Notes under the pieces: generated by a model
Seen by the model: the letters and a program-made list of their open reading frames with translations, nothing else
Database searches by the model: none
Told to the model about the DNA's origin: nothing
Made by a program: the position numbers and the translations under genes
Shown: piece after piece, positions 1,832 through 31,529 of the stretch
Layout of the letters: every line of letters starts with the position of its first letter
How positions within the stretch are numbered: the stretch's first letter is position 1
From: an uncultured Clostridia bacterium
GTDB lineage: Bacteria > Bacillota > Clostridia > Oscillospirales > Ruminococcaceae
Direction: 5' to 3'
Assembly: GCA_947629905.1 (NCBI GenBank)
Contig: CANRFM010000008.1
Span: forward strand, 5,811-69,810
DNA length: 64,000 nucleotides

Positions 1832-1834
1832 GCC

Positions 1835-3169: not shown

Positions 3170-3172
3170 ACA

Positions 3173-4000: not shown

Positions 4001-4003
4001 GTC

Positions 4004-4783: not shown

Positions 4784-4796
4784 AAAGATCGGAGGT

Positions 4797-6065
4797 ATGA
4801 CAATGATAAAACAGATCTTTTCCGCAGTAACGGCACTGGCAATGACAGGCATACTGATGACCTCTGTAGGTGCAGTTCAGGCAGAAGAACCATCTGCACT
4901 GTCGAAAGAGGAAATAGAAGCTCTTATGCCGCAGATCGAAGCAGCGGACAATCTTCTGATACATGAGGAAAACTGTTACAGCAGCACAATAGCAACATCA
5001 GAACTGGCAGAAAAGACTGGTTCAGAATACGGCTATACGCACATGGAAAACCGTGAAAATACGGAAAATCGTGAACGATTGTATAATGAGCTGATGAGCT
5101 GCATGGAGTCGGTCTGGACGAGCGAAACGGATTCCATGCAAATGGACAATGTGTTGGTAGGAACATTCTACATCATGGAAGTATTGGTGCTGGAGGACTT
5201 TGGGCTGAACTTTGATGAAGCTTCGGAAGTCTATGAGATGTTCCGGCATGACAATCCAATATTTTATTTTGCATCCAATGCAGTCTACGGCTATTCCCTA
5301 TCAGATACACAGACAATTCTGATGGTATGCTGCTTTGAAGAATTTGCTCCGGCAGCTGTCAAGCAGGAATGCAATGCCATGATAGAGCCTTATATCATGG
5401 AATATGCCGGATGTGTAGGCAGCGGTTCTACTTTTACTGATGCAAAGGCAATCCATGATAAGCTGATCCTCTCTATGGATTATGCCTATCAGGAAGACGG
5501 TGTGACCCCTTCTGAGACTGGCTATGCACATAGTATCATGGGTGCGATCGTGGGTGAAGGCACTTGTGATGCCTATGCCAAGACTTACCAGATGCTGTGT
5601 GAATATTACGGAATAGAAAGCATTTTTGTGACAGGCTATGTCCATGACAACCATGCATGGAATCTGCTGCAAATGGATGACGGGAATTACTATTTCGTGG
5701 ACTGTACAGGGGACGATCTCGGCGATGCGGCAAGCGATGCGTTTTTTGCTGTGGGAACGGACACGCTCTACCAGACACACACCATCAACACGCCTGAAAA
5801 CATTGGTGCAGACTATCTGTATGCACTCCCGGACATCAGCAAAACAGACTACAATGCAGCTGAAATACCGGAAGATAAGCCGACAGCAGGCGATGTGGAT
5901 CGTGACGGACAGCTCAGCACAGCCGATCTGGTACTGCTACAGAAATGGCTCTTGGCGGCAGATGTTGAGATCAGCAGTGAAAATGCCGATCTGTGCCCGG
6001 ACGGTGTGATAGACATTTTCGATCTTGGCATGATGAAACATATATTGCTTACCGGAACGGTATAA
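4797..6065 (+). CDS. Secreted transglutaminase-like (Cys-His-Asp) protein with C-terminal type-I dockerin
   Basis: GGAGG lies upstream of the ATG at 4797. Signal peptide is MTMIKQIFSAVTALAMTGILMTSVGAVQA. The core reads GEGTCDAYAKTY ... HAWNLLQMDDGNYYFVDCTGDD. The dockerin duplicated Ca-binding loops are GDVDRDGQLSTADLVLLQKWLL and DLCPDGVIDIFDLGMMK. The longer track ORF from 4692 overlaps the previous gene. Confidence 0.7.
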   Translation: MTMIKQIFSAVTALAMTGILMTSVGAVQAEEPSALSKEEIEALMPQIEAADNLLIHEENCYSSTIATSELAEKTGSEYGYTHMENRENTENRERLYNELMSCMESVWTSETDSMQMDNVLVGTFYIMEVLVLEDFGLNFDEASEVYEMFRHDNPIFYFASNAVYGYSLSDTQTILMVCCFEEFAPAAVKQECNAMIEPYIMEYAGCVGSGSTFTDAKAIHDKLILSMDYAYQEDGVTPSETGYAHSIMGAIVGEGTCDAYAKTYQMLCEYYGIESIFVTGYVHDNHAWNLLQMDDGNYYFVDCTGDDLGDAASDAFFAVGTDTLYQTHTINTPENIGADYLYALPDISKTDYNAAEIPEDKPTAGDVDRDGQLSTADLVLLQKWLLAADVEISSENADLCPDGVIDIFDLGMMKHILLTGTV

Positions 6066-6102: not shown

Positions 6103-7239
6103 ATGAGGGTACTGATACTGGACACGGATACAGAATATTCCGGACGCTTGCGGCATTATTGCAGCAAACGTTACACACAGCTGCAATTTTCCGTATGTGA
6201 TGATCCGGAAGCAGCCAAAAAGCTGATGCAGGAGTCAGCTTATGATGTTGTTCTGTTCGATGCGGAATTTGACGATATTCAGCCGGAAAGTCTTGCTCCC
6301 CTGCTTGGTCGGTCGGCATTTGCCTATATCTCCGGCACAAATGAGATCGTGAATGACTGTGACACGATCATGAAGTATATTCCTGTTACGGAAATGTTCA
6401 CAAAGATCTGTGCACTGTATGAAAAGAAGCGTAACCGCATTGTCAGACAAAACAAGGACAGCACGGAACAGGAAAAAAAGACGGAGATCATCACTTTCCT
6501 GCCCGTACACGGCGGTGCGGGAAGTTCAACAATGGCAGCAGCCTGTGCTATGTCGCTTTCGGAGGAAGCGGACGTGCTGTACATCGATCTTGAACAGTGT
6601 CCGTCAGATGCTGTGTTCTTTGACGGCAGCGGCAAAAAAGGGATCTCCGACGTGATTTCCCTGCTCAAGACCAGATATACAGATCCCAGCGTGGTCAATC
6701 TGCTTCACGAAGTCATCCAGAAAGATACAAAGCAGAAGAATTATAAAGTGGACTACATCCGGGGCTATGCGAATATTATGGACTGTCTGTCTATGACAGT
6801 ATCCTGTCTTGATACGCTCCTGAGAGTGCTGCGGGAAAAGATGAATTACCGTTTCATCATCATTGATGCGGATCTTATCATCAGTCCGATCCTGAATAAG
6901 CTGATCGCTGAAACAGATAAGCTGGTATTTGTCAGCTCGGGGGCGGATGTTGCCAATAACAAACTCCGGCGGATCCAACGGTATCTGGAGATCCTCGCAA
7001 GGGATGATGCCTGCGAGATGCCGGAAAAATACCTGCTGTTCAACCAGTATTACGGCATGAAGGAAGAACTTACGGTGGCAGGGGATATGGAGATCCTTGC
7101 AAAGATCGCCCGGTATCGGACAGGAGATAAGACACGCATCACTTCGCAGAATATCCTCCGTGAAGTATTGTCCGGCAAGCAGGTCTTTGCCGCTTTGAAG
7201 CCAAAAGATCCTGATGAAGAGGAAACATCTGTACAGTAA
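6103..7239 (+). CDS. TadZ/CpaE-like protein: receiver-like N-domain plus ParA/MinD-like domain with degenerate P-loop
   Basis: N-terminus MRVLILDTDTE...DVVLFDAEF is REC-like. The central FLPVHGGAGSSTMAAACAMS sits where KGGxGK[ST]T is expected. It is positioned directly upstream of cpaF. Confidence 0.6.
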   Translation: MRVLILDTDTEYSGRLRHYCSKRYTQLQFSVCDDPEAAKKLMQESAYDVVLFDAEFDDIQPESLAPLLGRSAFAYISGTNEIVNDCDTIMKYIPVTEMFTKICALYEKKRNRIVRQNKDSTEQEKKTEIITFLPVHGGAGSSTMAAACAMSLSEEADVLYIDLEQCPSDAVFFDGSGKKGISDVISLLKTRYTDPSVVNLLHEVIQKDTKQKNYKVDYIRGYANIMDCLSMTVSCLDTLLRVLREKMNYRFIIIDADLIISPILNKLIAETDKLVFVSSGADVANNKLRRIQRYLEILARDDACEMPEKYLLFNQYYGMKEELTVAGDMEILAKIARYRTGDKTRITSQNILREVLSGKQVFAALKPKDPDEEETSVQ

Positions 7240-7256: not shown

Positions 7257-8639
7257 ATGAAAATGAATATTGTGATCGATGAGGTCGTCAAGGAGATCTG
7301 CCATGCGATCGATCACGGCGAATTTATGGAAGAGGAAAAAGCCGACGCACAGGGGTTTGAAAAGATCAAGAACAAGGCGGAAAATGTTCAGGCAATACGG
7401 GAATCGGATGATGAGACGTACCGTTCCTACATATGGAAGATACTGGACAGGATACTGGACGAAAACGGAGATTACAAAGCTTCGGATGGTTCCATGGTCT
7501 ACATCATGCCGGAGGACAAGGCAAGGATCGTAGAGCAGGTATTCGGTATGTACCGTGGACTGGGGCTTCTGGACACGCTGCTGATGGATGAGGAGATCAC
7601 GGAGCTGATGGTCAATGGACCGGACAATATCTTCGTGGAGAAAAAAGGACGTGTCATCCGTCTTGATCAGCGTATCTGCAACGATACCGACTGCTCGGAA
7701 GAAGAACGTTTTGAGCGGGGGCGTGTGCAGCTCCGGAAGATCATTCACCGTATCGTGGACATCTGCGGCAGAGAGGTCAACGAGGCTAACCCGATCGTGG
7801 ATGCCCGTTTGAAAGACGGTTCCCGTGTCAATATCGTGCTGCACCCCATTGCCATGTGCGGCGATACCGTGACGATCCGTAAATTCTCCAAAAAGCCCAT
7901 GAGCATCGAACGGCTGATCGCCTACGGTTCGATCACTGAGGAGATCGCCATGAAGCTGAAAATGCTGGTCGGTGCGAAATACAACATCTTCATCAGCGGC
8001 GGTACGGGCAGCGGTAAGACTACCTTCCTGAATGCTCTGTCCAACTACATTCCTCACGATGAACGTGTTATTACCATTGAGGACTCCGCTGAGCTGCAGA
8101 TCACAGGCGTGGACAACTTGGTCAGCCTTGAGACAAAGCAGGCAAATGCAGAGGGCAAGGGTGCGATCACGATCAAAGACCTGATCAAATCCTCCCTGCG
8201 AATGCGTCCGGAACGGATCGTTGTCGGAGAGGTGCGTGGCGAGGAAGCGCTGGATATGCTGCAGGCGATGAATACCGGACATGACGGCTCGCTGTCTACC
8301 GGTCACGCCAATTCTGCCAAAGATATGCTTACCCGTCTGGAAACCATGGTGCTGCAGGGGGCTTCCGGCCTGCCGCTGGATGCTGTGCGAAGGCAGATCG
8401 GTTCGGCGCTGGACATCATCGTCCACCTGTCAAGAATGCGTGACCACTCCCGGAAAGTGGTAGAGATCACAGAAGTGCTTGGCTATGAAAAGGGAGAGAT
8501 CATTCTCAATCCGCTGTATGTGTTCGAGGAGGATAAGGATTCCACACTGGAACACGTGAAGGGCGGTCTGATGCGTACGAAAAATATCATGCAGAACACC
8601 GGAAAGCTCCGTCAGGCGGGCATTCCGGAGGATCTGTAA
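7257..8639 (+). CDS. cpaF: Tad pilus secretion ATPase CpaF/TadA (type II/IV secretion NTPase)
   Basis: Walker A is [16 protein letters not shown], Walker B region is [11 protein letters not shown], with [15 protein letters not shown] and [13 protein letters not shown]. Confidence 0.9.
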
Positions 8640-8658: not shown

Positions 8659-9501
8659 GTGAAGAAAAAAGATAAACAAGATACAAAACCGGCAAAGCCG
8701 AAAAAGGAAAAGAAGGTCAAGGAGAAAAAGCCGCAAGTTGTCGAAAATCATGGCATTACCGGTATCGGTACGGACTATACTGTCTACATTCTCAGCCGCA
8801 GTCAGAAATTGCTTGCTCTGGCAGCCGGGCTGCTGATCGGCTTTGTGGCAAGCTACATCTATCTAAACAATACGATCGTGAGCATACTTGTCGGGCTGGT
8901 TGCTGCCTACAAAGCACCTGCGATCTATACGAACATCTTGTTCCGGAAACGGCAGCAGGATCTGCGTGTCCAGTTCCGGGATATGCTCGAATCGCTGAGT
9001 AACTCCTACACGGTCGGCATGACGGCAAACCGGGCATTTCATGCAGCGTATTCGGATATGACGGTCGAACATGGACCAGATGCGTGGATCACCAAAGAAT
9101 TACAGCTGATCTGCTCGGCACATGACAATCAGGGTCTCGAGATCAAGGACATGATGAACGATTTCGCACAGCGGAGCGGTATCGATGATGTGCGCAGTTT
9201 TGCAGGCGTATTTGACGTTTCATCCAACCTTGGCGGTGATATTGCAAAGGTCGTTCGTGAGACACGGGACATGATCGGTGATAAGATCGAAGTGGAACTG
9301 GAAATACAGACCATTGTGACAGCACAGAAGAATCAGCTGAACATTCTTGCGGTCATGCCGCTTATCATGTCACTGCTGACACGAACTTTTGAAACCGGAG
9401 GCGGCGGCGGTATGATCGTTGTGCTGCTCAAACTGGCAGCACTGGGACTGTTCGTCTTTGCCTATTGGATGGGTACAAAGATCGTAGATATCAAAGTCTG
9501 A
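8659..9501 (+). CDS. tadB: TadB-like inner-membrane platform protein (T2SS-F family)
   Basis: GTG start 6 nt after GGAGGG. TM helices are present, along with the GGDIAKVVRETRDMIGDKIEVELEIQTIVTAQKNQLNILAVMPL pattern typical of TadB/GspF-type proteins. Confidence 0.75.
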   Translation: MKKKDKQDTKPAKPKKEKKVKEKKPQVVENHGITGIGTDYTVYILSRSQKLLALAAGLLIGFVASYIYLNNTIVSILVGLVAAYKAPAIYTNILFRKRQQDLRVQFRDMLESLSNSYTVGMTANRAFHAAYSDMTVEHGPDAWITKELQLICSAHDNQGLEIKDMMNDFAQRSGIDDVRSFAGVFDVSSNLGGDIAKVVRETRDMIGDKIEVELEIQTIVTAQKNQLNILAVMPLIMSLLTRTFETGGGGGMIVVLLKLAALGLFVFAYWMGTKIVDIKV

Positions 9502-9512
9502 GAGGTGAGCGT

Positions 9513-10412
9513 ATGTTTTTTATCATGCTGTTGTGTGCAGTGATCTCAACGATCTGTTTTGTGGTGTGGGTAATGCTGTTTCTGCGTTACCGGCATCAGT
9601 TTGACGGAATGCTGGACGATGTGGACGAAAAGACCTTTACACTGAAAAACCTGTATTTCATCGGTCTTGGCTTCATTGAAAGCTATGAGCATATCAAAAA
9701 CACGAAGATCACCGCCAATGAAAAGGCAATCGAAAGAATGAAGTATCTTTCCGAAGTTTTCGGACGGGAAGAAGCGGAGTTATATTACTATATATCGACA
9801 GGGGCAACGATCTCACTGATCCTCACATTTGTGCCGATTGGTCTAATGCTCACCTGCCTTCTGCAGAGCTTTTCCGGACTGTTGTGCGGTGTGCTTCTTG
9901 CAGCAGTTTTACCATATGGTATCCATTTAAGTATCAATTCGGCTGTGGATGCCAAGAAGGATGCCATTCTCAGTGAATTTCCAAAAATGGTGTCCAGACT
10001 GACACTGCTCATCAATGCAGGGATGCTTGTGCGCCGTGCGTGGGATGAGGTCGCTAACTCCGATCATAAGGAGAAGCTGTATGCCGAGATGCGCATAACT
10101 TCCAAGGACATGCAGGAAGGTATGTCCATTGAAGCAGCCATGAATGCCTTTGCATCCCGCTGCGGCATACGTGAAATGCGAAAGTTTTCTTCTATTTTTG
10201 TTCAAGCTGTCAATCGTGGAGCGGCGGATTCGATCGAGTCCATGAAAATAATGGCAGACGAGGCATGGGAACAGAAAAAGCAGATATCCAAACAAAAGGG
10301 CGAGGCAGCTTCCGGAAAGCTCATGATCCCCAATATGATCATGTTTGCCGGGATCCTGCTTGTTGTGGTCGCCCCAATGATCATTACTATGGTCACAAAT
10401 TTTTCGGCGTGA
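9513..10412 (+). CDS. tadC: TadC-like inner-membrane platform protein (T2SS-F family)
   Basis: ATG at 9513 follows GAGGTGAG. Motifs EFPKMVSRLTLLINAGMLVRRAW and AWEQKKQISKQKGEAASGKLMIPNMIMFAGILLVVVAPMI are present. The track ORF start at 9465 overlaps tadB. Confidence 0.75.
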   Translation: MFFIMLLCAVISTICFVVWVMLFLRYRHQFDGMLDDVDEKTFTLKNLYFIGLGFIESYEHIKNTKITANEKAIERMKYLSEVFGREEAELYYYISTGATISLILTFVPIGLMLTCLLQSFSGLLCGVLLAAVLPYGIHLSINSAVDAKKDAILSEFPKMVSRLTLLINAGMLVRRAWDEVANSDHKEKLYAEMRITSKDMQEGMSIEAAMNAFASRCGIREMRKFSSIFVQAVNRGAADSIESMKIMADEAWEQKKQISKQKGEAASGKLMIPNMIMFAGILLVVVAPMIITMVTNFSA

Positions 10413-10427
10413 AAGGAGGTGAAATAT

Positions 10428-10661
10428 ATGCTCGATAAGGTTTTGAACAAGGTCTGCCGTGCATTTCTCAAAGCCAGAAACAAATTTATGGAGCTGGCAA
10501 ATGAGGAAAGCGGTATGGAAACGGTCGAAGTCGTTATTCTGGTTGCGATCGCTGTAGTAGTAGCTGGTGTCATCCTTGACTTTTTGCAAGGTGACAAAGG
10601 TTTCATCAATACAATCTTTACTAAAATTGAAACTGCGATCGGAACTATGCTTGGTGTATAG
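10428..10661 (+). CDS. flp: Flp-family (type IVc) prepilin
   Basis: AGGAGG-N8-ATG. The protein is 77 aa with a basic leader, then ESG|METVEVVILVAIAVVVAGVIL (Gly cleavage site, Glu at +5, hydrophobic helix). Confidence 0.8.
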   Translation: MLDKVLNKVCRAFLKARNKFMELANEESGMETVEVVILVAIAVVVAGVILDFLQGDKGFINTIFTKIETAIGTMLGV

Positions 10662-10789: not shown

Positions 10790-11506
10790 ATGAAGAGAAT
10801 GCGTAAATTTCTGAGGGATGAAAGCGGTGCGGCGGAAATGATAGAAGCTGCTTTTGTCTATCCAGCCGTGTTTCTGTGCCTGTTTCTGCTGATCTATATT
10901 GGACTTTTTATCTTGCAGTCCATTACAGTGGGGACGTACGCACGAAAACTGGCGCTGCTGGCATCGAGGGAGATCGCCTGTCCGGGCTACATAGATATGT
11001 GTATGTATAAGGACGAGAAAGGCGCAGATGTAAGTGCCTTTTCCGATGCATCTGTGGAACTGGCATCGGGGTCAGGTGTCGGTCCCAGCACAAAACCGTC
11101 AACGGTGGATGCACGGCCCTATCGCTATTTCACGTCCAATCTGCTTGACGATGCGACAAACCAACAGCTGGAAAAGGTGGCACGCCAATTGCTGGCAAAA
11201 GGGTCGATCCTTGCGGGAAAAGGAAATGCGACCATAGAAGTGAAGGCGAAGAATTATTTCATCGTGCAGTATGTGACGGTGAGTGTCAAGCAGCCGCTGA
11301 TGGATTTCCCGCTGCTCAAAGCATTCGGTGTCAATCCGACTGTGCAGGCGAGTGCCACAGCAGCCGTAAATGACACGGATGAGTTTGTACGAAATGTGGA
11401 TTTTGTCGCAGATGCCCTGCAGGTGCTTGCCAAAAAGATCGGCATCAATGTGGATGCTATCAAGGATAAAGTCAACGAAGCCATGACAACGCTCAAATTA
11501 AAATAA
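10790..11506 (+). CDS. TadE-like pseudopilin/minor pilin 1
   Basis: N-terminus RDESGAAEMIEAAFVYPAVFLCLFLLIYIGLFIL is a TadE/TadG-type hydrophobic N-terminus. Confidence 0.65.
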   Translation: MKRMRKFLRDESGAAEMIEAAFVYPAVFLCLFLLIYIGLFILQSITVGTYARKLALLASREIACPGYIDMCMYKDEKGADVSAFSDASVELASGSGVGPSTKPSTVDARPYRYFTSNLLDDATNQQLEKVARQLLAKGSILAGKGNATIEVKAKNYFIVQYVTVSVKQPLMDFPLLKAFGVNPTVQASATAAVNDTDEFVRNVDFVADALQVLAKKIGINVDAIKDKVNEAMTTLKLK

Positions 11507-11517
11507 GGAGGTACGAA

Positions 11518-14500
11518 ATGGAACTGATCAGATCACATAAGGGCGCCATCTCAATTTTCTTGATCATCATGCTGCTGCCAATGGTAACGTATGCAACGAT
11601 CATCATTGACGGGGCGAGGGTCATCACTTCCCGAACGACGATCGCCAATGCAGGCGACCTTGCCATGAATGCGGCACTGTCGGAGTATGAACAGACACTT
11701 GAAGATATGTACGGGCTGTTTGCTACGGCAGCTTCCGAGGAAGATCTGAAAATGCAGCTCAAATCCTACTTTGCACAGACCCTTGAGGGAAGATTCTACA
11801 ACGGTCAAAGAGGGGACTACAGTACCCAGCAGCTGACAGATGATGTTATCGATGCGATCTTCCAATATGAGGAAGACAGCCAAGGCATTGCGAATTTCAT
11901 TCAGATGAAAACGGAAGAATTTGACTTTTCTCCTGTGCAGAATTCCTCGCTGGCAAATCAGGCGATCATGAAACGGCAGATCGTGGAGTACATGAAGTAC
12001 AAAGGACCGGTCTCGCTGGCGAGCAACTTGTTCAGCAAGCTGGATTTTCTGAAAGATTCTGCCAGCCAGACAGAAGTTCTGGAGAAGAAAGTCGAATACA
12101 CAGAGAAGCTCGACACCATTCAGGATGCCTGCGAAGCAGCGCTGCAGGCTCTGAACGATTACAATAGTGCAGCAAAAGACTATAACGATACATATGGCAA
12201 AGGAAAAGGCAAAGTCAAAACGATCATTGACAACATGAAAAAAGATTACCAGTATATGTCCGCCTGCCTGCTCATGGAGAAAAGCTCAGAGCTTGAGACG
12301 TTTTCATGGGATGATCTGGATATAACGGAAGATAAAGATGTGAACGATATCAACAGTACGCTCGATCAGATCGAACAGAATCTGACAGCAGAAGAGCTCA
12401 CACGGCAGGATCTGCATGAAATGTTATCCATACTGAAGGTTACCTATGAAAACAGTATCAAATCAGGTTTGATGCGGGGGCTAATGAAAGTGGACATCCA
12501 AGAAGCTCAGGTAGATCCGACAACACAGGAACGTCCCTACCCGACCATTGATCTCATCATAGAGAGCGAAAAACAATATGATGATACCAATGTGCCCTAT
12601 CAGGATCGTCTTGACAATTATGTAAAAGATCTGAATAGCATCTCGCAAGTCGACCGTGCAAATGGCGAGGTCTATGTGCAAGCATTGGAGGAACATTTCC
12701 AGAAACTGAATGAAGCAAATCAATTTGCAAAGGGGGCAGAAGGTTATCTCATCAAGATCAGGGCGACCTATAGAATACTGGAACGTCTGAACTCGTTATA
12801 TAGCAGTATTTTTTCGAGCTATGCACACAAGTATGAATCAGATTATGAAGCAACGTTTAGAAAGTATAATGAAAATGCCAGTGACAAGGATGTAGAAGAC
12901 GCACTGAATGCGGCAAAGAAAAACTGGACGAATATTCAGGACACGAACAATCCATACAACGAATTTATAAGCGAATATTATGAGTTTGATCGGGGGAATT
13001 ATGAGATCAACACTGTGTTTAGTAAATTAAATAACAGTAGCTACGCCAGAAGTGTCAGTGATTTTCTTAAAAAGGTAAGTGATGACAGTATTTACGAGAA
13101 CAGTGCAGATTTTTATGCCGCAAGAGCTGCAGAGGACATCACCGCCTATTATAACTGCGTTGCGGACGTTGCGGCAAAAGCCTTCGCATCCAATTACTAT
13201 TTGGGTGAAGTCATAAAAAAGCTTAAGGATGCGGAAAATGCAAAAAACGACTGGCAGGATAAAGTCAACGGTCTCCCATCCGGCAGTACCAAGACTGCCA
13301 TGCAGAGTGACCTGAAATCAACCACCGAAGGACTCAAAAAGTCAGATGTTGAAGCGCTTCAGAAAGTGATGAAAGGCATTTATGACCTGTTTTCCAAAAA
13401 GAAAAAAGAGATCTTAGATACTGAAATTCAAAAAGGTGTTCAGTTTTGCGGTCTCTCACCGATCAATGTCAAAAAGAGCGGTCCATTTCTAAAAACTGCT
13501 CCATTTTCAAATATATCTAAATTGACCAATGTGAGCGATGTAAACAATATTGCGGCATCACTGGTGGATACTAAACTGCAGATGTCAGAAGATATTGAAA
13601 ACGAGATCGAGGCGAAAATAATCTATGGCATCCAAAATGACGAAAAGTTTTTCCTCACGCTGAAAAGCATCTGCGAACCTTACAAAACGGAAGAAAAAAA
13701 TACAAAGCAGGATGAAGCTATGGACAAGGTCAAACAGATACGTGATGATGCGCAGAAAGAAGCAAAGAAAAGTGATACCACGACAGAACAGAAAACGCCT
13801 GAAAGTGAGACACCAAAAGGCGATGACAGCGGCGGCGATAACAGCGGTGGCGGCGATAACAGCGGCGGCAGCGGTAACAGCGGCAGCGATGGCGACAATA
13901 CCAAAGAAGATAAAGCAGTAAGTAAAGACATCGGTAAAATTTATGAAACGATCGATAGCGTTGCCCAAGCGGGAAACAGTTCGGACAGTATGGAAATGTC
14001 GGGCATATCGAACATGACGTTCGAAAAGAAAGATGACTACAAAGAGGATTCCGGTAATGCCAAAACTGCTTTGACATCGGCACAAAACCTGCTGTCTTCT
14101 CTGAAAAATATCGCTGTGAAGGCAAGAGACTACGCCTATCTGGAAGAATATTTCACAGAAATGTTCACCTGCCGCACATTTACATCCGATGAGCTGATCA
14201 ATAAAAAGCCTCAGGAATTGATGCTGCTCAACGGTTATTCTCCTACTGTTAAAGGGAACAAACACATCAACACCAAAACCAACTGGTACGGCAAAGAGAT
14301 CGAATACATCATCTGGGGTAATCCGGATCTGAATAAGAATCTGGATTACACGGATGCATGGATCTATCTTGTCCGGTTCGCACTCAATGCGATCTACGCT
14401 TTCACATCGTCGGATATCCAGATGGTAGCCCTTGAAATGGCAACAGCTATCGCAGGGTGGACAGTCGTAGGTGTCCCCATTGTACAGGCGTGCATCACGC

Positions 14501-15741
14501 TTGGGCTTGCCGTGGCAGAAAGTGCTTATGATATTGTTCTCCTGCATGAAGGAAAAGACGTACCGATCTATAAAAATGCGCAGACCTTTGTCTGCTCTCC
14601 AGCCGGACTTGCCAATGCAGTCGGAACGCAGCTAACGGAGTATGTGGCAGAAAAGGTGGAAAATGCCATTGACGAGAAGATCGATCAGCTGGCAAACAAC
14701 ACTTATAATAGTATAAATGATGCCATGAGCGACGTAAATGAGGTACTCGACGATTATGTTAACAACCAAGCAGAGGGGATCCTTGCTTCTGTTACGGATC
14801 AGTTTGCGACCCCGATCGTCAATGCACTTACACCGATACTCAACAGCGTTGATACGACACGGGAAAATGCTGTTGATAAGGTGAATGAGATCGAAAAAAA
14901 GATTGAGGATACAATCGAAACTGTATGGAGTAATATCTATGACAGCATCAACAATTCCCTCCCGGATGGTATCGCAAAAGATCTGGCATTGGAAGCATAT
15001 AATAAAGGCAGTGGAACCATCAAAGACAGCTTGAAAGGTGAGATACAAACATATTTTAATAATGTCACAGGCATAAACGATACACTTCCTGAAAATTCCG
15101 TTTACTTTCTCAGAGATCAGCTGGTAGGTGTTAAGAAGGGCGAGGACGGTAAGACAATCGGAACCGGTATCATTTCCGGCTGGATCTACGGATACCGGGA
15201 TACGATAGAAAGTAAAATAAAGAAACTGACTGAAAAAACAAGCCAAAAGATCAAAGACATGGGCGACGAGGGCATAAAGAACCTCAAGAGCACACTGCAC
15301 GACGAACTTGGCAGCATGACCACTGAGATCAGCGGCTCTGTCTCAGAGATGATCACTGACAATCTGGGCAATACTGTCTCAAATAATATGGTCTCTGACA
15401 GCGCAAACTCCAAAGGTTTTACGCTCAATTACAAGGAATACTGCAAGATCATAGTCTTTGTCAAGCTCATCGAAAACAAAGAGGGCGTAATGCTCAACCG
15501 GGCTGCTGCCCTGATAGAGGCAAATGTACAGGCAGCAGAAGGCAACGATCAGTTCGGTATCACTAAGACCTGCACCCTTGTCAAGATCGATGCAACAGTC
15601 CGGATGAAAACATTTTTCCCGTGGGCGGTAAAGGTAGAAGATTCTACTGACGTGGACGGCTCAACGAGTATCCAGCCAGATCTGACCAAACTGGGTGAGT
15701 ACGATGTGGATATCCACTATCAGGGTATCAATGGTTACTAA
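11518..15741 (+). CDS. Giant (1407 aa) TadG-like N-terminally anchored protein of unknown function
   Basis: N-terminus SHKGAISIFLIIMLLPMVTYATIIIDGARVITSRTTIANAGDLAMNAA. A long K/E/D/N-rich region and an SGGDN low-complexity hinge follow. An internal ~60-aa hydrophobic block sits at 14359-14541. The SD GGAGG lies upstream. Confidence 0.8.
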   Translation: MELIRSHKGAISIFLIIMLLPMVTYATIIIDGARVITSRTTIANAGDLAMNAALSEYEQTLEDMYGLFATAASEEDLKMQLKSYFAQTLEGRFYNGQRGDYSTQQLTDDVIDAIFQYEEDSQGIANFIQMKTEEFDFSPVQNSSLANQAIMKRQIVEYMKYKGPVSLASNLFSKLDFLKDSASQTEVLEKKVEYTEKLDTIQDACEAALQALNDYNSAAKDYNDTYGKGKGKVKTIIDNMKKDYQYMSACLLMEKSSELETFSWDDLDITEDKDVNDINSTLDQIEQNLTAEELTRQDLHEMLSILKVTYENSIKSGLMRGLMKVDIQEAQVDPTTQERPYPTIDLIIESEKQYDDTNVPYQDRLDNYVKDLNSISQVDRANGEVYVQALEEHFQKLNEANQFAKGAEGYLIKIRATYRILERLNSLYSSIFSSYAHKYESDYEATFRKYNENASDKDVEDALNAAKKNWTNIQDTNNPYNEFISEYYEFDRGNYEINTVFSKLNNSSYARSVSDFLKKVSDDSIYENSADFYAARAAEDITAYYNCVADVAAKAFASNYYLGEVIKKLKDAENAKNDWQDKVNGLPSGSTKTAMQSDLKSTTEGLKKSDVEALQKVMKGIYDLFSKKKKEILDTEIQKGVQFCGLSPINVKKSGPFLKTAPFSNISKLTNVSDVNNIAASLVDTKLQMSEDIENEIEAKIIYGIQNDEKFFLTLKSICEPYKTEEKNTKQDEAMDKVKQIRDDAQKEAKKSDTTTEQKTPESETPKGDDSGGDNSGGGDNSGGSGNSGSDGDNTKEDKAVSKDIGKIYETIDSVAQAGNSSDSMEMSGISNMTFEKKDDYKEDSGNAKTALTSAQNLLSSLKNIAVKARDYAYLEEYFTEMFTCRTFTSDELINKKPQELMLLNGYSPTVKGNKHINTKTNWYGKEIEYIIWGNPDLNKNLDYTDAWIYLVRFALNAIYAFTSSDIQMVALEMATAIAGWTVVGVPIVQACITLGLAVAESAYDIVLLHEGKDVPIYKNAQTFVCSPAGLANAVGTQLTEYVAEKVENAIDEKIDQLANNTYNSINDAMSDVNEVLDDYVNNQAEGILASVTDQFATPIVNALTPILNSVDTTRENAVDKVNEIEKKIEDTIETVWSNIYDSINNSLPDGIAKDLALEAYNKGSGTIKDSLKGEIQTYFNNVTGINDTLPENSVYFLRDQLVGVKKGEDGKTIGTGIISGWIYGYRDTIESKIKKLTEKTSQKIKDMGDEGIKNLKSTLHDELGSMTTEISGSVSEMITDNLGNTVSNNMVSDSANSKGFTLNYKEYCKIIVFVKLIENKEGVMLNRAAALIEANVQAAEGNDQFGITKTCTLVKIDATVRMKTFFPWAVKVEDSTDVDGSTSIQPDLTKLGEYDVDIHYQGINGY
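13821..13896 (+). repeat. Imperfect ~15-nt coding tandem repeat (DDSGGDNSGGGDNSGGSGNSGSDGD)
   Basis: agcggcggcgataac appears twice, followed by agcggcggcagcggtaac and agcggcagcgatggcgac. Confidence 0.7.
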
Positions 15742-15752
15742 GGGGGCGCACT

Positions 15753-16670
15753 ATGCTAAAAATTCACAGAAACAGAAAAAAAGACGAGACGGGTGCAACA
15801 TCTATCGAAGCAGTCATTAGCCTGACGTTTTTCATGCTGTCCATATTGGCATTGATGTTCATAGCTGCGATCATACAAGTGCAGGCAAATATGCAGTATG
15901 CGATCGGACAGACTGCCAAAGAGATCTCCGGTTATTACTATCTGCTTGACAAGCTTGGGCTTGCCGCTGTCACATCGGGGCAGCTTCCCGCTGAAACAAA
16001 GGAAAAGCTGAACTCGTTGGATTCTACCCTTGCCAGCTTTTCCTCTCTTGCCGGGGATGTGAAGCACACTGCTGAACAGTTTCAGGACTTGGATGAGCTG
16101 ACACCGGATAAATTAGAGGCTTTCATGAAGAACGCAGAAAGCACGGACTTTAAGGAAAAGGCGGAATCTCTCAGCAGTTCTTTCAAGGAAATGGTACAAA
16201 AAGGAGATCCCGTGGAACAGATGAAAGCCGTACTGCAATTGTTTGGCAAGACACTCGTCAGCAAGGCATTTTCCTATTATGTCACACCCTATGTCTGTCG
16301 GGCTCTCGTGCCAAAATATCTGAGCAACGGCAATGACGTGGAAGCCTACTGCGAGGCAATGGGGCTGAAATGGAACTGCGACAAGGATGACAATGCCACC
16401 GAATACATGGATTTCAAAAATTCCCAGCTTCTTATGGACGGAAGGTCGATCAAGATCACTGTAGAGTATACGATCAACACCAAACCCTTGACATTCGGGC
16501 TTGTAGATACGGTTCTGAAATGCCGTCAGACAGCTGCAACGGCAGCATGGATCCGTCCGGAGGACGGAGAAAACTCCTCCAAGAAAAAAATCAAAGACCT
16601 CCCTGTTCCGCCGGAAGTAACAGAACCCGCCAAGGAAGAGGAAGAAAAGCCACAGGAGGGCACGGAATAA
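15753..16670 (+). CDS. TadE-like pseudopilin/minor pilin 2
   Basis: N-terminus KKDETG|ATSIEAVISLTFFMLSILALMFIAAII has Gly followed by Glu at +5. The C-terminal tail is acidic and P-rich. Confidence 0.65.
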   Translation: MLKIHRNRKKDETGATSIEAVISLTFFMLSILALMFIAAIIQVQANMQYAIGQTAKEISGYYYLLDKLGLAAVTSGQLPAETKEKLNSLDSTLASFSSLAGDVKHTAEQFQDLDELTPDKLEAFMKNAESTDFKEKAESLSSSFKEMVQKGDPVEQMKAVLQLFGKTLVSKAFSYYVTPYVCRALVPKYLSNGNDVEAYCEAMGLKWNCDKDDNATEYMDFKNSQLLMDGRSIKITVEYTINTKPLTFGLVDTVLKCRQTAATAAWIRPEDGENSSKKKIKDLPVPPEVTEPAKEEEEKPQEGTE

Positions 16671-17329
16671 TGATCTGGGTTGAGCTGCTGATCGGAGCGG
16701 TCCTATCCGTCCTGCTTTCCGGGCTGGCGGTATGGTACAGGAAGATCTACCTTGATGAAGGGAAATCTTGTCAGCTGGCAGATGCCTTGCAGCAGCAGAA
16801 GCGTGCAGGGCTGCTGCTGTGTGCCGGGTACATCTGCGCAGCAGCCGGAATGCTGCTGACTAAAAAAGAACTGCCGCCCGTAGAGCTTGTACAGAATATC
16901 CTGCTCTGGGATGGAATGCTGCTGACCGCAAGCATTGATCTGCGTGTCAAGAAGATCCCGAACAAACTTGTCCTGCTGCTGCTCTTACTGCGTATTGTGT
17001 GCATGATAATCAGTATTGTGCTTGCACCTGACAGGGCAGTGGTGATCATAGTAGGTTCCTTGATCGGTATGGCAGTCGGCGGCGGTATCATTTTGGTCAT
17101 GCGGCTGTTTTCGAGAAGTGCAGCCGGTGCAGGCGATCTGAAAATGTTTGCCGTTCTGGGAGCCTATTTCGGCTTGCAGGGACTGATGCAGACGATGATC
17201 TATACGCTTTTTGCCTCGGCACTGGTCGCCATAGTGCTGCTGCTGCTGCGAAAAGCGGGAATGAAATCGACAATGCCAATGGCTCCCTTTATGCTGTGGG
17301 GATTGACAGTATATTACATTCTATTATAA
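16670..17329 (+). CDS. Prepilin peptidase, A24 family (TadV/CpaA-like)
   Basis: The ATG overlaps the upstream TAA. The protein is polytopic, with SIDLRVKKIPN and GAGDLKMFAVLGAYFG aspartate motifs. Confidence 0.75.
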   Translation: MIWVELLIGAVLSVLLSGLAVWYRKIYLDEGKSCQLADALQQQKRAGLLLCAGYICAAAGMLLTKKELPPVELVQNILLWDGMLLTASIDLRVKKIPNKLVLLLLLLRIVCMIISIVLAPDRAVVIIVGSLIGMAVGGGIILVMRLFSRSAAGAGDLKMFAVLGAYFGLQGLMQTMIYTLFASALVAIVLLLLRKAGMKSTMPMAPFMLWGLTVYYILL

Positions 17330-17339
17330 GTCTGGAGTG

Positions 17340-18659
17340 ATGATCATGAATAAAGCAATGCCGCTGATCATTCTGTTGGTAATGGTCGGAATGCTGCTCA
17401 TGGGTTGGAACAATATACTGAATTACAACAAGACGAAGCAGATGGAATTTGATGAACATATCAAAGCAGCACAGGCTTTCATGGAGAAAGAGGTGTATAT
17501 CGATGCGGTGAGCGAATATGAAGCTGCTCTGCGGCTCTCACCGCAGAATTATGAGATCGCTGTACAGATCGTGGATCTGTACAGGAAACTGGAAATGGAA
17601 AGTTCCTATATCAGTGCCTGTGAAAAGGCGATCGATGCTGACAGCAAGCAGCTTGACCCCTATCTGTGGGAAGCCGATCACTACCTTGCCACCAATGCCT
17701 ACAGTGATGCGTATTCGATCCTGATGCGGGCAAAAAACAATTTAGAAGACACGAGCGAGATCGATAAGCGCCTTATTGAGATCCTTGGACATTATAACAC
17801 GGTAACACTGAGCTACGGAGATTTTCAGGGCTGGGTATTCGAGGAAAGCGAAAGTACGGGATATGCTGTTGTTTCAGAAAACGGGAAATACGGGCTGCTC
17901 GATTCTTCAAACAGTCTGTATGAGAAATGTGAATACGATGACATAGGTTTACCGATGTCCGGATTGATACCTATCAAAAAAGACGGGGAATACTATTACA
18001 TCAACACAGACGGTTACCGGAAAGTCGTGCCGGATCGTGCAGCAGACTGGCTTGGCTGTTTCCATGATGGCAATGGTGTTATCCGCATTGGTGATCAATA
18101 TGGCTATCTTAATAAGAGCGGCAGCGATCGTCACGTGGAATACGATTTTGCGGGCGGCTTCTGGAATCAGCGGGCAGCAGTCGAAAAGAATGGCAAATGG
18201 GCTCTGATCGACACCAGCTTCAATCAGATCACGGGGTTTGACTTCGATGAGATCCTGACAGATGCGTATGGTTTCTGCTCCATGTATGGTGTATTTTGGG
18301 CAAAGCGTGACGGGGCATACTATCTGTATGATCTGCAGGGGAACTGCATTTCAGACGGGTATGAAGCGGTAAAGCTCTTTGCTTCAGATGAACCTGCGGC
18401 AGTGATGCGGGACGGCAAGTGGGGATTTGTTTCCAAAGAAGGCGAACTGGTAACAGAACCAACATATGAGGAGGCGGATTCTTTTTCCCTCGGCTATGCA
18501 CCCTTCTGTAAAAATGGAAAATGGGGCTGCATCGATGCGGACGGCAATGTCCTCATAAAGCCGGAATTTGACAGTTTGAAGCCATTTTCACAAAACGGCT
18601 ATGCACTTGCAGAGCTGGATGACTTGCAGGAATTTATCGTCGTAACGATCTATGGATAG
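17340..18659 (+). CDS. Membrane-anchored TPR plus WG-repeat (KWG) protein
   Basis: N-terminal TM is MPLIILLVMVGMLLMGW. TPR-like helices (EYEAALRLSPQNYEIAVQIVDLY) are present. Repeated GKYGLLD / GKWALID / GKWGFVS / GKWGCID modules follow. The start is ambiguous (17337, 17340 or 17346). Confidence 0.7.
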   Translation: MIMNKAMPLIILLVMVGMLLMGWNNILNYNKTKQMEFDEHIKAAQAFMEKEVYIDAVSEYEAALRLSPQNYEIAVQIVDLYRKLEMESSYISACEKAIDADSKQLDPYLWEADHYLATNAYSDAYSILMRAKNNLEDTSEIDKRLIEILGHYNTVTLSYGDFQGWVFEESESTGYAVVSENGKYGLLDSSNSLYEKCEYDDIGLPMSGLIPIKKDGEYYYINTDGYRKVVPDRAADWLGCFHDGNGVIRIGDQYGYLNKSGSDRHVEYDFAGGFWNQRAAVEKNGKWALIDTSFNQITGFDFDEILTDAYGFCSMYGVFWAKRDGAYYLYDLQGNCISDGYEAVKLFASDEPAAVMRDGKWGFVSKEGELVTEPTYEEADSFSLGYAPFCKNGKWGCIDADGNVLIKPEFDSLKPFSQNGYALAELDDLQEFIVVTIYG

Positions 18660-18670
18660 GAGATAAGGAT

Positions 18671-20023
18671 ATGGAATTGACAAGGATCCAAAGAGGCAGT
18701 AATATTTATGCCGTATATGACCTCAGCGGCGTTCAGGCACAGGAGGATCATGTGAGCCTGATGATGATCAACAACAACCAAAACGGTTCGATCGGACTTG
18801 CGCCTGTTTCTTTCGAGGAAATGAACGGTGTACGCACCAAGATGCTGTTTGATGTGACAGGGCGTGTGACACTGCGGGAGTATGTGAGCCGGAACATCAC
18901 ACAGGAAGATTTCAGGCAGATGCTCCTGCACCTTGTAGACACGATCGAAGGCTTTGACGAATACATGATCGATGTTTCGCAGGTGCTGCTTGACATGAAC
19001 GCCGTGTTCATCAACGCCATGGATCACAGCGTTTCTTTCCTGTGCATTGCACTTGAGGGCGTACGCAGAACGGATGCCCTGTTCTCGTTTTTCAAGGAAC
19101 TTGTGGAGAGCAGTTTTGTGACAGCAGGTACGGGTGAAGTCAGCTATTTCAACCGTGTCTATAATCTCGTACATACTGCAAATGGCTTTTCCCTGCAAAA
19201 CATCCGCATGGCTGTATTGGAAAAGCCGCAGCAGAAAACCGCAGATCCTGCAAAGCGTGCTGCCGCTCCTGAAGTACAAAGACCAGAACGTGTGGAAGAA
19301 CCGGAGACGATCACCATTTCCGAACAACAGGAGACCGAAGAAAAGGTCGATGTCGTTCCCATGCCAGAGCCGGAGAAAAAAAAGAAAGGGTTGTTCGGCG
19401 GTTTGTTTTCCTCCGGGCGAAAGAAGGAAGAAGCATCCTCAACTGAAAGCGGCTATCGGGGCGGACTTGCAAGCCTGAAAAAAGGAAAAGAACCGATCAC
19501 GGAACAGCCTGCTGTGCCGGCACCGCCTTCCCCCGTTCCTGCTGTTCAGCCGGCATCCGGCGGAACAAGTCTCATTGGTAGTGGTGCAGCACCGATCCCG
19601 GAACAGCCGCAGGCGAAGAAAGAACCTGTCAGAGAGGGGACAATTCTTTTGGGATTAGAGCCGGAAAATCCGCCGCAGCCACAGTCCCCGGCATCCGGAG
19701 CGACCATCCTGCTCACACAGGAAGAAAAACGTGCCTTTCTGATACGCAACCGGAATCAGGGGCGTGTTCTCATCAGCAAGCCTGTCTTTTCGATTGGCAG
19801 AGATGCACCGGAATTGGACTATGATCTGCATGAAAACACCTATATCGGTCACAGACACGCTAATATCCTGCGCCGTAACGGAGAATTTTACTTAGTGGAT
19901 CTCCATTCTGTCAACCACACCTACCTCAACGGCACACTGCTTCAGGCGGACACGGAAATGCGGCTCGCTGACGGTGATACAGTGCGCTTTGCGGATGAGG
20001 ACTTCACCTTTCGCATTCTCTAA
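18671..20023 (+). CDS. FHA-domain protein 1 (unknown N-domain, P-rich linker, C-terminal FHA)
   Basis: The C-terminus reads FSIGRDAPELDYDLHENTYIGHRHANILRRNGEFYLVDLHSVNHTYLNGTLL...GDTVRFADEDFTF. Confidence 0.8.
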   Translation: MELTRIQRGSNIYAVYDLSGVQAQEDHVSLMMINNNQNGSIGLAPVSFEEMNGVRTKMLFDVTGRVTLREYVSRNITQEDFRQMLLHLVDTIEGFDEYMIDVSQVLLDMNAVFINAMDHSVSFLCIALEGVRRTDALFSFFKELVESSFVTAGTGEVSYFNRVYNLVHTANGFSLQNIRMAVLEKPQQKTADPAKRAAAPEVQRPERVEEPETITISEQQETEEKVDVVPMPEPEKKKKGLFGGLFSSGRKKEEASSTESGYRGGLASLKKGKEPITEQPAVPAPPSPVPAVQPASGGTSLIGSGAAPIPEQPQAKKEPVREGTILLGLEPENPPQPQSPASGATILLTQEEKRAFLIRNRNQGRVLISKPVFSIGRDAPELDYDLHENTYIGHRHANILRRNGEFYLVDLHSVNHTYLNGTLLQADTEMRLADGDTVRFADEDFTFRIL

Positions 20024-20037
20024 AAGGGGGAGTAACA

Positions 20038-20823
20038 TTGGATCTTATTGCCGCAGCCGTAACGGACATCGGTATTGAAAAGGGTGTCAATCAGGATAGC
20101 TATGGTGTCAGACTGCTCCGCACAAAGCTGGGGAATATGGCGTTTGCTGTGCTGTGTGACGGAATGGGCGGTCTTTCCTACGGAGAGGTCGCCAGTGCCA
20201 CGGTAGTCGATGCCTTTCAGCGATGGGTCATAGAACGTCTCCCGCAGCTTTGTAACAGCGGTATTTCCGAGCAGATCCTCCGTCAGGAATGGACAGCACT
20301 GCTGCAAAACTGCAATCGGCGGATAGCGGCATACGGAACGGAGAGGGGTATTTCCCTCGGAACGACAGCAGCTGTTCTGCTGCTGACAGAAAGCAGGTAT
20401 TTCTGTATGCATATCGGTGATTCGAGAGTTTACGAGATCACCGCACAGGTAATGCAGCTTACCAGAGATCACAGCCTTGTGGCAAGAGAAGCGGAACTGG
20501 GATTTCTCACGGAGGAACAGGCAAAAAATGACCCAAGACGAAATATCCTTCTGAAATGTATCGGTGCGGCCCCGGATGCTGTTCCGTCATTTCTGTCCGG
20601 CGCAACAAAGGAAAATGCCGTGTATATGCTTTGCAGTGACGGGTTCTGGCACGGGGTAACGGAAGAGACCTTGCTGTGCTGCCTTGCGCCTTCTTCCCTG
20701 CACGATGCCGGTCAGATGGAACAGCAGATCCGCTTTTTGATCGGAGAGAACAAGCGGCAGCAGGAAAACGATAATATCACGATCATCACACTCAAAACCG
20801 GGACACAGGTGAAAACAGGATGA
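20038..20823 (+). CDS. PP2C-family Ser/Thr phosphatase 1
   Basis: TTG start after AGGGGGA. Motifs are NQDSYGV, LCDGMGG, GDSRVY, TRDHS, LCSDGF and NDNITII. Confidence 0.85.
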   Translation: MDLIAAAVTDIGIEKGVNQDSYGVRLLRTKLGNMAFAVLCDGMGGLSYGEVASATVVDAFQRWVIERLPQLCNSGISEQILRQEWTALLQNCNRRIAAYGTERGISLGTTAAVLLLTESRYFCMHIGDSRVYEITAQVMQLTRDHSLVAREAELGFLTEEQAKNDPRRNILLKCIGAAPDAVPSFLSGATKENAVYMLCSDGFWHGVTEETLLCCLAPSSLHDAGQMEQQIRFLIGENKRQQENDNITIITLKTGTQVKTG

Positions 20824-21710
20824 AACAGGGAATGCTTTTAGAAGGAAAATATCAAATCTTTGAGGAGATCAAGCACAGCAGCACGGGAGAAGTCTGCCTT
20901 GCCCGGGCAGGAAACAAATACTACGCTGTCAAGGCAGTCCACCGCAGCGATGCTGCACTGCCGACTGTACTGTATACGGCACAGCACCCCGGTCTTCCTC
21001 ATCTGGAAGAAGTGCTGGAAAAGGGGGACGAGGTGATCTTCATCATGGACTGGATCAGCGGCAGTACGCTGGATCAGTGCCTGAAAGAAACAGGTGTACA
21101 GCCGGAAACTCTCGTGTTGAACTGGGCAGTACAGCTTTGTGATGTGCTGCTCTATCTGCACAGCCTGCCGGTTGTCCACTGTGATATAAAACCGTCTAAT
21201 ATCCTGCTGAGACCGGATGGCAGGCTGGTGCTGATCGATCTGAGTGCTGCCACAACACCCGGCACGCTCCGGAAGTCAGCCGTCAACGGGACACAGGGTT
21301 TTGCAGCACCGGAACTATACACCGGATTTGCCGATGCAAGGACAGATATCTATGCACTTGGGCAGACCTTGCTGGTGCTTTTGACAGGCGGCATTCCGGA
21401 AAGTACGGCACTGCCAACGGCACTCAGAGCTGTATGCAGAGAGACTTTTGCACAGATCATCCTGAAATGCGTACAGCCCCTGCCAGATGACCGTTATCCG
21501 TCCTGTGCAGAACTGATGCAGGCATTGAAAAGCTGTGAGGCTGATCCTGCGGTATCCTCCCGGCATACAGCTTTCTGTCCGCCAACGGAGGAACGTGTGA
21601 CCGAAAAACTTGTAGATACTGCCAGCGCACTGCTTCCGGTCTTGTATCCAGAAGCGGATTTCGAGGTGGTGGAAACACTTGGTTTTACAAGTGCAGCACC
21701 GCTGCGATGA
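20820..21710 (+). CDS. Hanks-type Ser/Thr kinase 1 (soluble, divergent motifs)
   Basis: Motifs are YAVKAV, VHCDIKPSNILL, LIDLS (in the DFG position) and GTQGFAAPE. No TM segment and no clear Gly-rich loop are visible. There is a 4-nt overlap with the upstream phosphatase gene. Confidence 0.75.
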   Translation: MKQGMLLEGKYQIFEEIKHSSTGEVCLARAGNKYYAVKAVHRSDAALPTVLYTAQHPGLPHLEEVLEKGDEVIFIMDWISGSTLDQCLKETGVQPETLVLNWAVQLCDVLLYLHSLPVVHCDIKPSNILLRPDGRLVLIDLSAATTPGTLRKSAVNGTQGFAAPELYTGFADARTDIYALGQTLLVLLTGGIPESTALPTALRAVCRETFAQIILKCVQPLPDDRYPSCAELMQALKSCEADPAVSSRHTAFCPPTEERVTEKLVDTASALLPVLYPEADFEVVETLGFTSAAPLR

Positions 21711-21785
21711 AAAATGGGCGTGAGAGCATGGATCATAGCGTAATTTCAAAAACAGAGATCCATGAGGATCCATAGGGAGAATAGT

Positions 21786-22571
21786 ATGATCGAAAATCAA
21801 ATATACAGGTCACAGCATGATACCGTCTACGTGTCTGTCTATTCTGCCATTGGCGATAGAGAGAATCAGGAGGATTCTTATTTGATATGCAGCAGTGAGA
21901 ATGCGGTCCTTGCTGCGGTCTGTGACGGAATGGGCGGCAGAAAAGGCGGCGAGATCGCAAGCAAAACTGCCATTTCAGGGCTGAAAGAACATTTTGACGG
22001 CACGTTGTACCGGGACAGCTCTTTTTTTACGGATATTGTAGATGAACTGGATGCAAGAGTATTTTTTTTGACGGATCAGAGTAAAAGAAGACTGCACGCC
22101 GGGACAACACTTGCTTCTGTCACGCTCAATAACGGCAGTCTCGATTGGTTTTCAGTTGGTGACAGCCGTATCTATATCATGAGAAACGGGGAAACTATAC
22201 AAGCTACCAGAGATCATAATTATAAAGAAATGCTGATCGATCTGCTGCAGCGGGGGAACATTACAAGGGAGCAATTTGAAAAGGAAAAGAATAAACACGC
22301 TGCATTGACAAGTTATCTTGGGATCGGCGGTGTCAAATTATATGATATCAGCATCACACCATTGGTTCTGAAAGACGGTGACCTGATCATTGTGTCTACT
22401 GACGGATTTTACAATGCCGTGCCAATGGAACAGATCGCAGCTATGGGCAGGAAAAGCACAGATGAGATCATTCATGCGGTCGCAGAGATCTGGGAAGGCA
22501 GCGAAATGTCTGGCAGAGATAATACGACTTGTATTATCATCAAATACTGTGTGGAGGCAGATGAAAAATGA
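21786..22571 (+). CDS. PP2C-family Ser/Thr phosphatase 2
   Basis: GGGAGA lies upstream of the ATG at 21786 (the track ORF starts at 21762). Motifs are QEDSYLI, VCDGMGG, GDSRIY, TRDHN, VSTDGF and RDNTTCIII. Confidence 0.85.
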   Translation: MIENQIYRSQHDTVYVSVYSAIGDRENQEDSYLICSSENAVLAAVCDGMGGRKGGEIASKTAISGLKEHFDGTLYRDSSFFTDIVDELDARVFFLTDQSKRRLHAGTTLASVTLNNGSLDWFSVGDSRIYIMRNGETIQATRDHNYKEMLIDLLQRGNITREQFEKEKNKHAALTSYLGIGGVKLYDISITPLVLKDGDLIIVSTDGFYNAVPMEQIAAMGRKSTDEIIHAVAEIWEGSEMSGRDNTTCIIIKYCVEADEK

Positions 22572-23392: not shown

Positions 23393-23396
23393 TAGA

Positions 23397-25361: not shown

Positions 25362-25420
25362 AAACAAGAGACAGCGGTTGTAACAGAAACGCATGATCAT
25401 TGTTTCGGTAAGGAGAAAAA

Positions 25421-31526: not shown

Positions 31527-31529
31527 CAT

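Follow-up and report, generated by a model that had tools for sequence, protein, structure and literature searches.

A giant TadG-like, DUF5702-containing protein in a clostridial Tad pilus operon: a candidate apical minor pilin

The Caulobacter ortholog of TadG, CpaL, has been described as minor-pilin-like; it has a vWA domain in addition to a G/A-X4-F/E site and is predicted to sit in a tip complex with CpaJ and CpaK (PMC12607857). The extreme C-terminal β-strand of CpaL is required for pilus assembly, about 470 residues in the middle of the protein are largely dispensable, and CpaL has been treated as an analog of GspK and PilK (PMC12918778). The glutamate at position 5 (Glu5) is missing in CpaL and in apical minor pilins of the GspK type (PMC12607857, PMC12918778). 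In Myxococcus, the large TadG-like pilins called KilN form the backbone of interchangeable Tip complexes; KilN modules have no relative in the PDB, and one Tip is toxic by itself (PMC12075869). Here, we describe a 1407-amino-acid (aa) protein, referred to as the giant, encoded in a Tad pilus operon within 64,000 nucleotides (nt) of contig CANRFM010000008.1 (positions 5,811 to 69,810; assembly GCA_947629905.1) from an uncultured Clostridia bacterium of the Ruminococcaceae. This whole stretch is called the window, and all coordinates refer to it. To our knowledge, the Tad pili of Firmicutes are almost unstudied. Literature searches returned no paper mentioning DUF5702 or PF18960, the Pfam family that the giant contains.

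We give a probability of roughly 60% to the giant being the equivalent of TadG, CpaL, and KilN, that is, a large minor pilin of the Tad (type IVc) pilus in Clostridia and related Firmicutes. The best reading is that it is an apical minor pilin of a tip complex and carries a new kind of module. Like TadG of Aggregatibacter and CpaL of Caulobacter, the giant has a Gly-X4-Phe site without Glu5 at an N-terminus that in most relatives scanned matches PF13400, is encoded in a tad operon with two adjoining minor pilins of the TadE/TadF type, and combines conserved ends, including a strictly conserved extreme C-terminus, with a variable middle. Unlike these proteins, it lacks a vWA domain with a MIDAS motif, is 2-3 times longer, ends in a DUF5702 domain, and belongs to monoderm hosts. 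KilN resembles the giant in being a large TadG-like pilin between two smaller minor pilins and in having a module with long helices and without a PDB relative. However, the sequence relationship to KilN is confined to the N-terminus, the giant comes from a non-predatory host, and nothing points to toxicity. Like the apical (pseudo)pilins GspK and PilX-PilK, the giant is the largest minor pilin of its set and lacks Glu5, an absence that would suit a place at the top of a priming complex. The difference in size is tenfold, though, and no fold similarity was detected with the C-terminal models.

Gene, operon, and family of the giant

The giant is encoded by an uninterrupted, ATG-started open reading frame (ORF) at 11518..15741 on the forward (+) strand, where the genes from TadZ to TadV described below also lie. 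A Shine-Dalgarno sequence, AAGGAGG (11505..11511, +), is located 6 nt 5' of the ATG at 11518. The assignment of the whole gene as TadG-like and DUF5702-containing draws on the ORF, Pfam, and homologs. A first-pass annotation, made from the DNA letters alone, had placed this gene between two TadE-like genes, quoted its N-terminus as MELIRSHKGAISIFLIIMLLPMVTYATIIIDGARV, and put its length at 4-6 times that of its neighbors. All three statements agree with our results: the slot lies inside a complete Tad (type IVc pilus) operon, the N-terminus reads as quoted, and the giant is 5.9 and 4.6 times as long as the flanking 238- and 305-aa proteins.

The operon begins with genes identified by Pfam and synteny as encoding a TadZ-like protein (6103-7239), the TadA ATPase (7257-8639), TadB (8659-9501), and TadC (9465-10412). 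These are followed by the gene for a Flp-like major pilin, 80 aa as listed (10419..10661; ESG↓METVE, with the arrow marking the putative cleavage point here and below), and by the upstream TadE-like minor pilin gene (10790..11506; 238 aa, ESG↓AAEMIE). The downstream TadE-like minor pilin gene (15753..16670; 305 aa, ETG↓ATSIE, with Glu5) precedes that of a TadV-type prepilin peptidase (Peptidase_A24), 269 aa as listed (16520..17329). Both TadE-like ORFs are separated from the giant gene by 11 nt and have N-termini resembling class III signals. Their matches to Pfam TadE are below threshold (E = 0.022 for the 238-aa protein and 0.093 for the 305-aa protein); TadE was matched in 6 of 10 homologs of the flanking genes, once above the Pfam cutoff. 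As listed, the peptidase ORF shares 150 nt with the end of the downstream TadE-like gene, and its N-terminal extension is rich in Arg and Gly. Because homologs are only 210-230 aa long, the true TadV start is probably internal to this ORF.

We surveyed related loci using one genome per species, which returned 66 loci. Their gene order is nearly invariant: TadZ-TadA-TadB-TadC-(Flp)-TadE-giant-TadE-TadV-WG/TPR-FHA-PP2C. The hosts belong to Oscillospiraceae, Ruminococcus, Lachnospiraceae, Hungatella, Lachnoclostridium, Peptococcaceae, and Erysipelotrichaceae (Thomasclavelia saccharogumia DSM 17460), and one is a Bacillales metagenome-assembled genome. A word-indexed search found 204 homologs of the giant, and the 120 that were listed are 1076-1774 aa long, each a single ORF with PF18960. 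An exhaustive phmmer search with aa 855-1042 recovered 1125 clusters (at 50% identity) with E ≤ 1e-3, including 524 with E ≤ 1e-10. Nearly all clusters exceed 1000 aa. A tblastn search of plasmids gave no match to the giant. The giant is a normal full-length member of a widespread, uncharacterized DUF5702 family with a fixed slot in the operon.

The survey also bears on whether the giant is an artifact in which a gene fusion or frameshift has joined two genes. The first-pass annotation had raised the case of a frameshift-joined pair whose members are separate in all relatives, but the relatives are single long ORFs. The same N- and C-terminal modules occur in one ORF in 60 of the 66 species-level loci (665-1831 aa) and in all 120 listed homologs, and the shorter phmmer matches that were inspected were fragments at contig ends. 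The window ORF is itself unbroken and has a strong ribosome-binding site. What speaks for an artifact is that the giant was called as two ORFs in three loci only: L067:265-4430 (579 + 813 aa, on a contig at 2.3x coverage), L050:4853-8205 (537 + 573 aa), and L054:8015-11529 (948 + 93 aa). These are probably assembly errors or pseudogenes, not naturally split genes. Because relatives are single long ORFs, we reject the artifact, to which we attach a negligible probability.

The N-terminal module and its prepilin-like site

The giant starts with a basic leader (aa 1-9, ending in Gly9) and a hydrophobic α1N-like segment (aa 10-30), which together occupy 11518..11607 (+). They open a conserved N-terminal module, aa 1-231 (11518..12210, +), within which PF13400 "Tad" matches aa 9-49. 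This and the other module boundaries were set with hidden Markov models built from the family and applied to 180 relatives. The putative prepilin-peptidase site is KG↓AISIF, with Phe at +5; next come 21 apolar residues. Among relatives, both Gly9 and Pro21 are invariant. At +5, 116 of 150 relatives have Phe; the others have Leu, Ile, Met, or Val there, one has Gly, and none has Glu.

The giant, which has Phe, departs from the general rule for minor pilins, Glu at +5. Of the downstream TadE-like proteins, 49 of 54 have Glu at +5, as do 12 of 13 Flp proteins. For the upstream TadE-like family, counting from the Gly, Glu first appears at +5 in 24 of 52 proteins and at +6 in 20 of 52. As read from the sequence, the putative site and the hydrophobic helix of the giant correspond to those of TadG and CpaL, as does a tad operon with TadE/TadF-type minor pilins and TadV. 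PF13400, described as "Putative Flp pilus-assembly TadE/G-like," was matched in 17 of 23 relatives at E ≤ 0.01 (best, 3.4e-6). Together with the conserved TadE-giant-TadE-TadV order and the Gly-X4-Phe site, these matches bear out the earlier description of a TadG-like protein in the pseudopilin slot.

The DUF5702 domain and the hydrophobic block

The C-terminal part of the giant matches Pfam DUF5702 (PF18960) with 93.7 bits (gathering cutoff, 26) and E = 1.3e-26. The match comes in two pieces: profile positions 18-204 are covered by aa 825-1036, and positions 211-275 by aa 1292-1362. The architecture of the giant is typical of the family, with DUF5702 in the window protein split by an insertion of 252 aa. 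We delimit part 1 as aa 860-1042 (14095..14643, +), the helical insertion as aa 1043-1294 (14644..15399, +), and part 2 as aa 1295-1407 (15400..15738, +), the latter modeled as two helices and a four-stranded sheet. In each of the 180 aligned relatives, part 2 forms the exact C-terminus (...GINGY). The insertion is 3-287 aa long among these relatives; some have essentially none, and since DUF5702 is contiguous in them, aa 1043-1294 of the window protein are an insertion. It contains a predicted helix of about 80 residues.

The first-pass annotation had drawn attention to a hydrophobic segment of about 60 residues at nt 14359-14541, followed by about 400 further residues. Translation of these positions gives exactly WIYLVRFALNAIYAFTSSDIQMVALEMATAIAGWTVVGVPIVQACITLGLAVAESAYDIVL, aa 948-1008, and 399 residues follow. 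Apart from the N-terminal anchor, this block is the sole Kyte-Doolittle peak of the giant, and it is the best-conserved stretch of both the protein and DUF5702. It is enclosed by three conserved apolar helices at aa 938-963, 965-979, and 985-1010 (14329..14547, +). Positions R953, A975, G980, P987, E1001, D1005, G1012, and K1019 in this region are invariant.

We modeled aa 761-1407 (647 residues) using AlphaFold2. The predicted local distance difference test score (pLDDT) was 68 overall and 85-93 over the block, which formed three helices. For a construct from which the insertion had been spliced out (aa 855-1042 + 1295-1407), the pLDDT was 84.2 (94-97 over the block), and the predicted template modeling score (pTM) was 0.76. 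The spliced model is a compact α/β domain with eight longer helices and a few short turns, followed by the four-stranded sheet. We read the block as the core of the DUF5702 domain, made up of three helices, and not as an independent transmembrane hairpin.

The earlier annotation had instead taken the block for a second membrane-competent hairpin, which suggested a membrane-inserting effector. Our results give this no support: the model has three helices where a hairpin would have two, and the block appears as the core of a conserved, compact domain with invariant Arg, Glu, and Asp. The insertion energy of the block, calculated as a simple sum on the biological hydrophobicity scale of Hessa, was also unfavorable. 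Its best 19-mer scored +3.46 kcal/mol, compared with -1.18 for the N-terminal anchor. The family medians were +3.2 and -0.49 kcal/mol, respectively, and the block scored +1 or less in only 8 of 186 relatives. With this energy, helices of 15-26 residues that carry invariant charges, and contiguous apolar runs of 14-15 residues, the block is marginal for insertion as a bilayer-spanning hairpin. The annotation had itself named burial of the block in a globular fold as grounds against its proposal, and the confidence of the model, together with the sequence, comes close to indicating this.

A related possibility is that the giant is a membrane-active tip or effector in which DUF5702 is folded "inside out," with its apolar helices shielded until they insert into a target membrane or the cell's own membrane on contact, as in colicin, Bcl-2, or ClyA-type proteins or in the toxic Tip4 of the Myxococcus Kil Tad pilus. 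Such a mechanism would be in keeping with three apolar helices in a row that have many small residues and are set in an otherwise amphipathic helical context, and a toxic TadG-like tip has a precedent (PMC12075869). The top Foldseek matches of the 647-residue model are the pore formers ClyA, Hbl, and Nhe. However, none of these matches rises above noise: the search against the PDB returned nothing significant (best E = 0.19, for ClyA; template modeling scores ≤ 0.19), and the spliced domain reached only E = 1.6, also without a significant hit and without a pilin match. Pore-forming domains of the colicin, ClyA, or Hbl/Nhe type gave no Pfam match and no significant structural match. The family-median insertion energy, the short apolar runs, and the invariant R953, E1001, and D1005 further argue against membrane activity, and we consider it improbable. 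We rate as still more improbable the specific form in which DUF5702 is a conserved membrane-active or envelope-piercing tip module whose three-helix core is released on contact. If it were true, the Tad pili of gut Clostridia would not be simple adhesive fibers but devices that deliver or puncture on contact.

A Foldseek search of BFVD, made with the spliced domain only, likewise found nothing significant (best E = 0.25). The modeled DUF5702 fold is thus without a detectable structural relative, and because none was detected in the PDB, the domain is a reasonable target for structure determination. When the PDB was searched with the sequence and with a family profile, the only matches were helical ones due to low complexity or composition: the insertion matched ApoA-IV, and the spacer matched coiled coils of chemoreceptor, SMC, and SNARE proteins. 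Scans of the giant against NCBIfam and PHROGs yielded nothing meaningful.

The giant had also been described as having no recognizable enzymatic motif. We found no match to a catalytic family and reject an enzyme on that ground; the absence of any recognizable motif was only partly right, given the clear match to DUF5702. Further invariant residues of the domain are E877, C885, E927, and E929, and the motifs LEEYFTEMFTC and GxEIEYILWG stand out (14146-14532, aa 877-1005). The invariant E877, C885, E927, E929, E1001, and D1005 could serve as a metal site or an unrecognized active site, or could make up a buried polar network.

Spacer, proposed assembly, and neighboring genes

Between the conserved ends lies a variable polar spacer, aa 232-859 (628 aa; 12211..14094, +), which we presume to be helical. 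Its length ranges from 203 to 1014 aa across the 180 relatives. Residues 101-800 contain 15-24% K+E and 12-21% D+N and few Gly or Pro, in line with the earlier description of about 750 residues rich in K, E, D, and N. The coiled coil proposed along with that composition is not established. The only support for it comes from compositional profile matches to helical or coiled-coil proteins, and we do not assert a coiled coil because a self-BLAST of the giant found no internal repeats and heptad periodicity is weak. Near the end of the spacer is a low-complexity linker of Gly, Ser, Asp, and Asn (aa 768-794; 13819..13899, +) that is predicted to be disordered and is not conserved. It contains the SGGDN hinge noted earlier (GDDSGGDNSGGGDNSGGSGNSGSDGDN at aa 768-794); the hinge is real but lineage specific, with a similar stretch in 9 of 186 relatives.

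We propose that the class-III-type signal and α1N helix at its N-terminus would bring the giant into the membrane and that it would probably be cleaved after Gly9 (G↓AISIF) by the TadV of the operon. Together with the two flanking TadE-like minor pilins, it may assemble on the TadB/TadC platform, and this complex may prime Flp polymerization and end up at the pilus tip. The missing Glu5 would mark the giant as the top-most subunit. The N-terminal module and DUF5702, with its invariant extreme C-terminus, would most likely form the assembly-competent base, and the variable helical spacer and the insertion would project outward as lineage-specific surface modules. A role at the pilus tip, as the first-pass annotation had suggested, is plausible; its other suggestion, a length ruler, found no specific support. 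We also considered an adhesin anchored by sortase and rejected it, as there is no LPXTG motif and the C-terminus reads ...HYQGINGY.

Several points weigh against a TadG-like tip pilin. The PF13400 match of the window protein (18.5 bits, E = 0.0025) falls below the gathering threshold of 22.3 bits, and no vWA family, which with its MIDAS is a hallmark of TadG and CpaL, appeared in the Pfam or NCBIfam scans. More than 1,100 residues would be extracellular, far above any characterized tip pilin. A pilin fold of the N-terminal module is presumed from its sequence, and both TadV cleavage and presence in the fiber are predictions for the whole family. Burial of the block, too, is inferred from pLDDT, pTM, and sequence.

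Alternatively, the giant could remain outside the filament as an uncleaved, membrane-anchored protein whose helical ectodomain serves as a wall-spanning scaffold or conduit for the Flp filament, in place of the envelope parts RcpA, RcpC, and TadD of diderm systems. The family is limited to monoderm Firmicutes and is found in every such operon locus, although the loci were retrieved through the family itself. The predicted ectodomain is helical and very long, and even model organisms have yet to yield a settled location or role for TadG (PMC6916266). On the other hand, known monoderm type IV pili need no conduit (PMC6916266), and a spacer that varies from 203 to 1014 aa would be odd for a ruler that spans the wall. 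The Gly-X4-Phe N-terminus and the place between two Glu-bearing minor pilins fit a tip complex better. We regard a component outside the filament as unlikely and favor the apical minor pilin.

Operons of this type occur in many rumen and gut Clostridia, including Ruminococcus, Oscillospiraceae, Lachnospiraceae, Hungatella, and Thomasclavelia. Should the giant be a tip subunit, DUF5702 and the hypervariable spacer would be the parts that meet plant fiber, host mucosa, or other cells, and the protein would be the largest "modular minor pilin" known. It can serve to test a recent proposal, namely that TadG-like proteins customize Tad tips and license assembly through their conserved ends.

Signaling genes continue the tad operon at 17337-29731. 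The first, at 17337-18659, encodes a protein with WG repeats and TPR. Two FHA proteins, the earlier of which also has DUF6382, are encoded at 18671-20023 and 22568-23392, and two PP2C phosphatases at 20038-20823 and 21762-22571. There are also three genes for Ser/Thr kinases, at 20820-21710, 23397-25361, and 25421-29731; the product of the third is 1436 aa long and has PASTA, Big_2, and LRR domains. Synteny of the WG/TPR, FHA, and PP2C genes with the Tad genes holds in most of the 66 loci and suggests phospho-regulation of the pilus. DUF6382-FHA proteins are also found in type VII secretion (T7SSe/f) loci (PMC11217815).

Directly 5' of the TadZ gene, the protein encoded at 4692-6065 combines a transglutaminase-like core with a type I dockerin; it has no counterpart in the 66 related loci and points to a cellulosome-producing, Ruminococcus-like host. 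For four ORFs further upstream (1037-4783; 264, 444, 275, and 259 aa), Pfam gave nothing significant and a single weak match, to DUF6541, and none of the four has a counterpart in related Tad loci. On the other side, 3' of the kinase genes, genes for a phage terminase large subunit, portal, and capsid at 30270-33643 look like a prophage or phage remnant.

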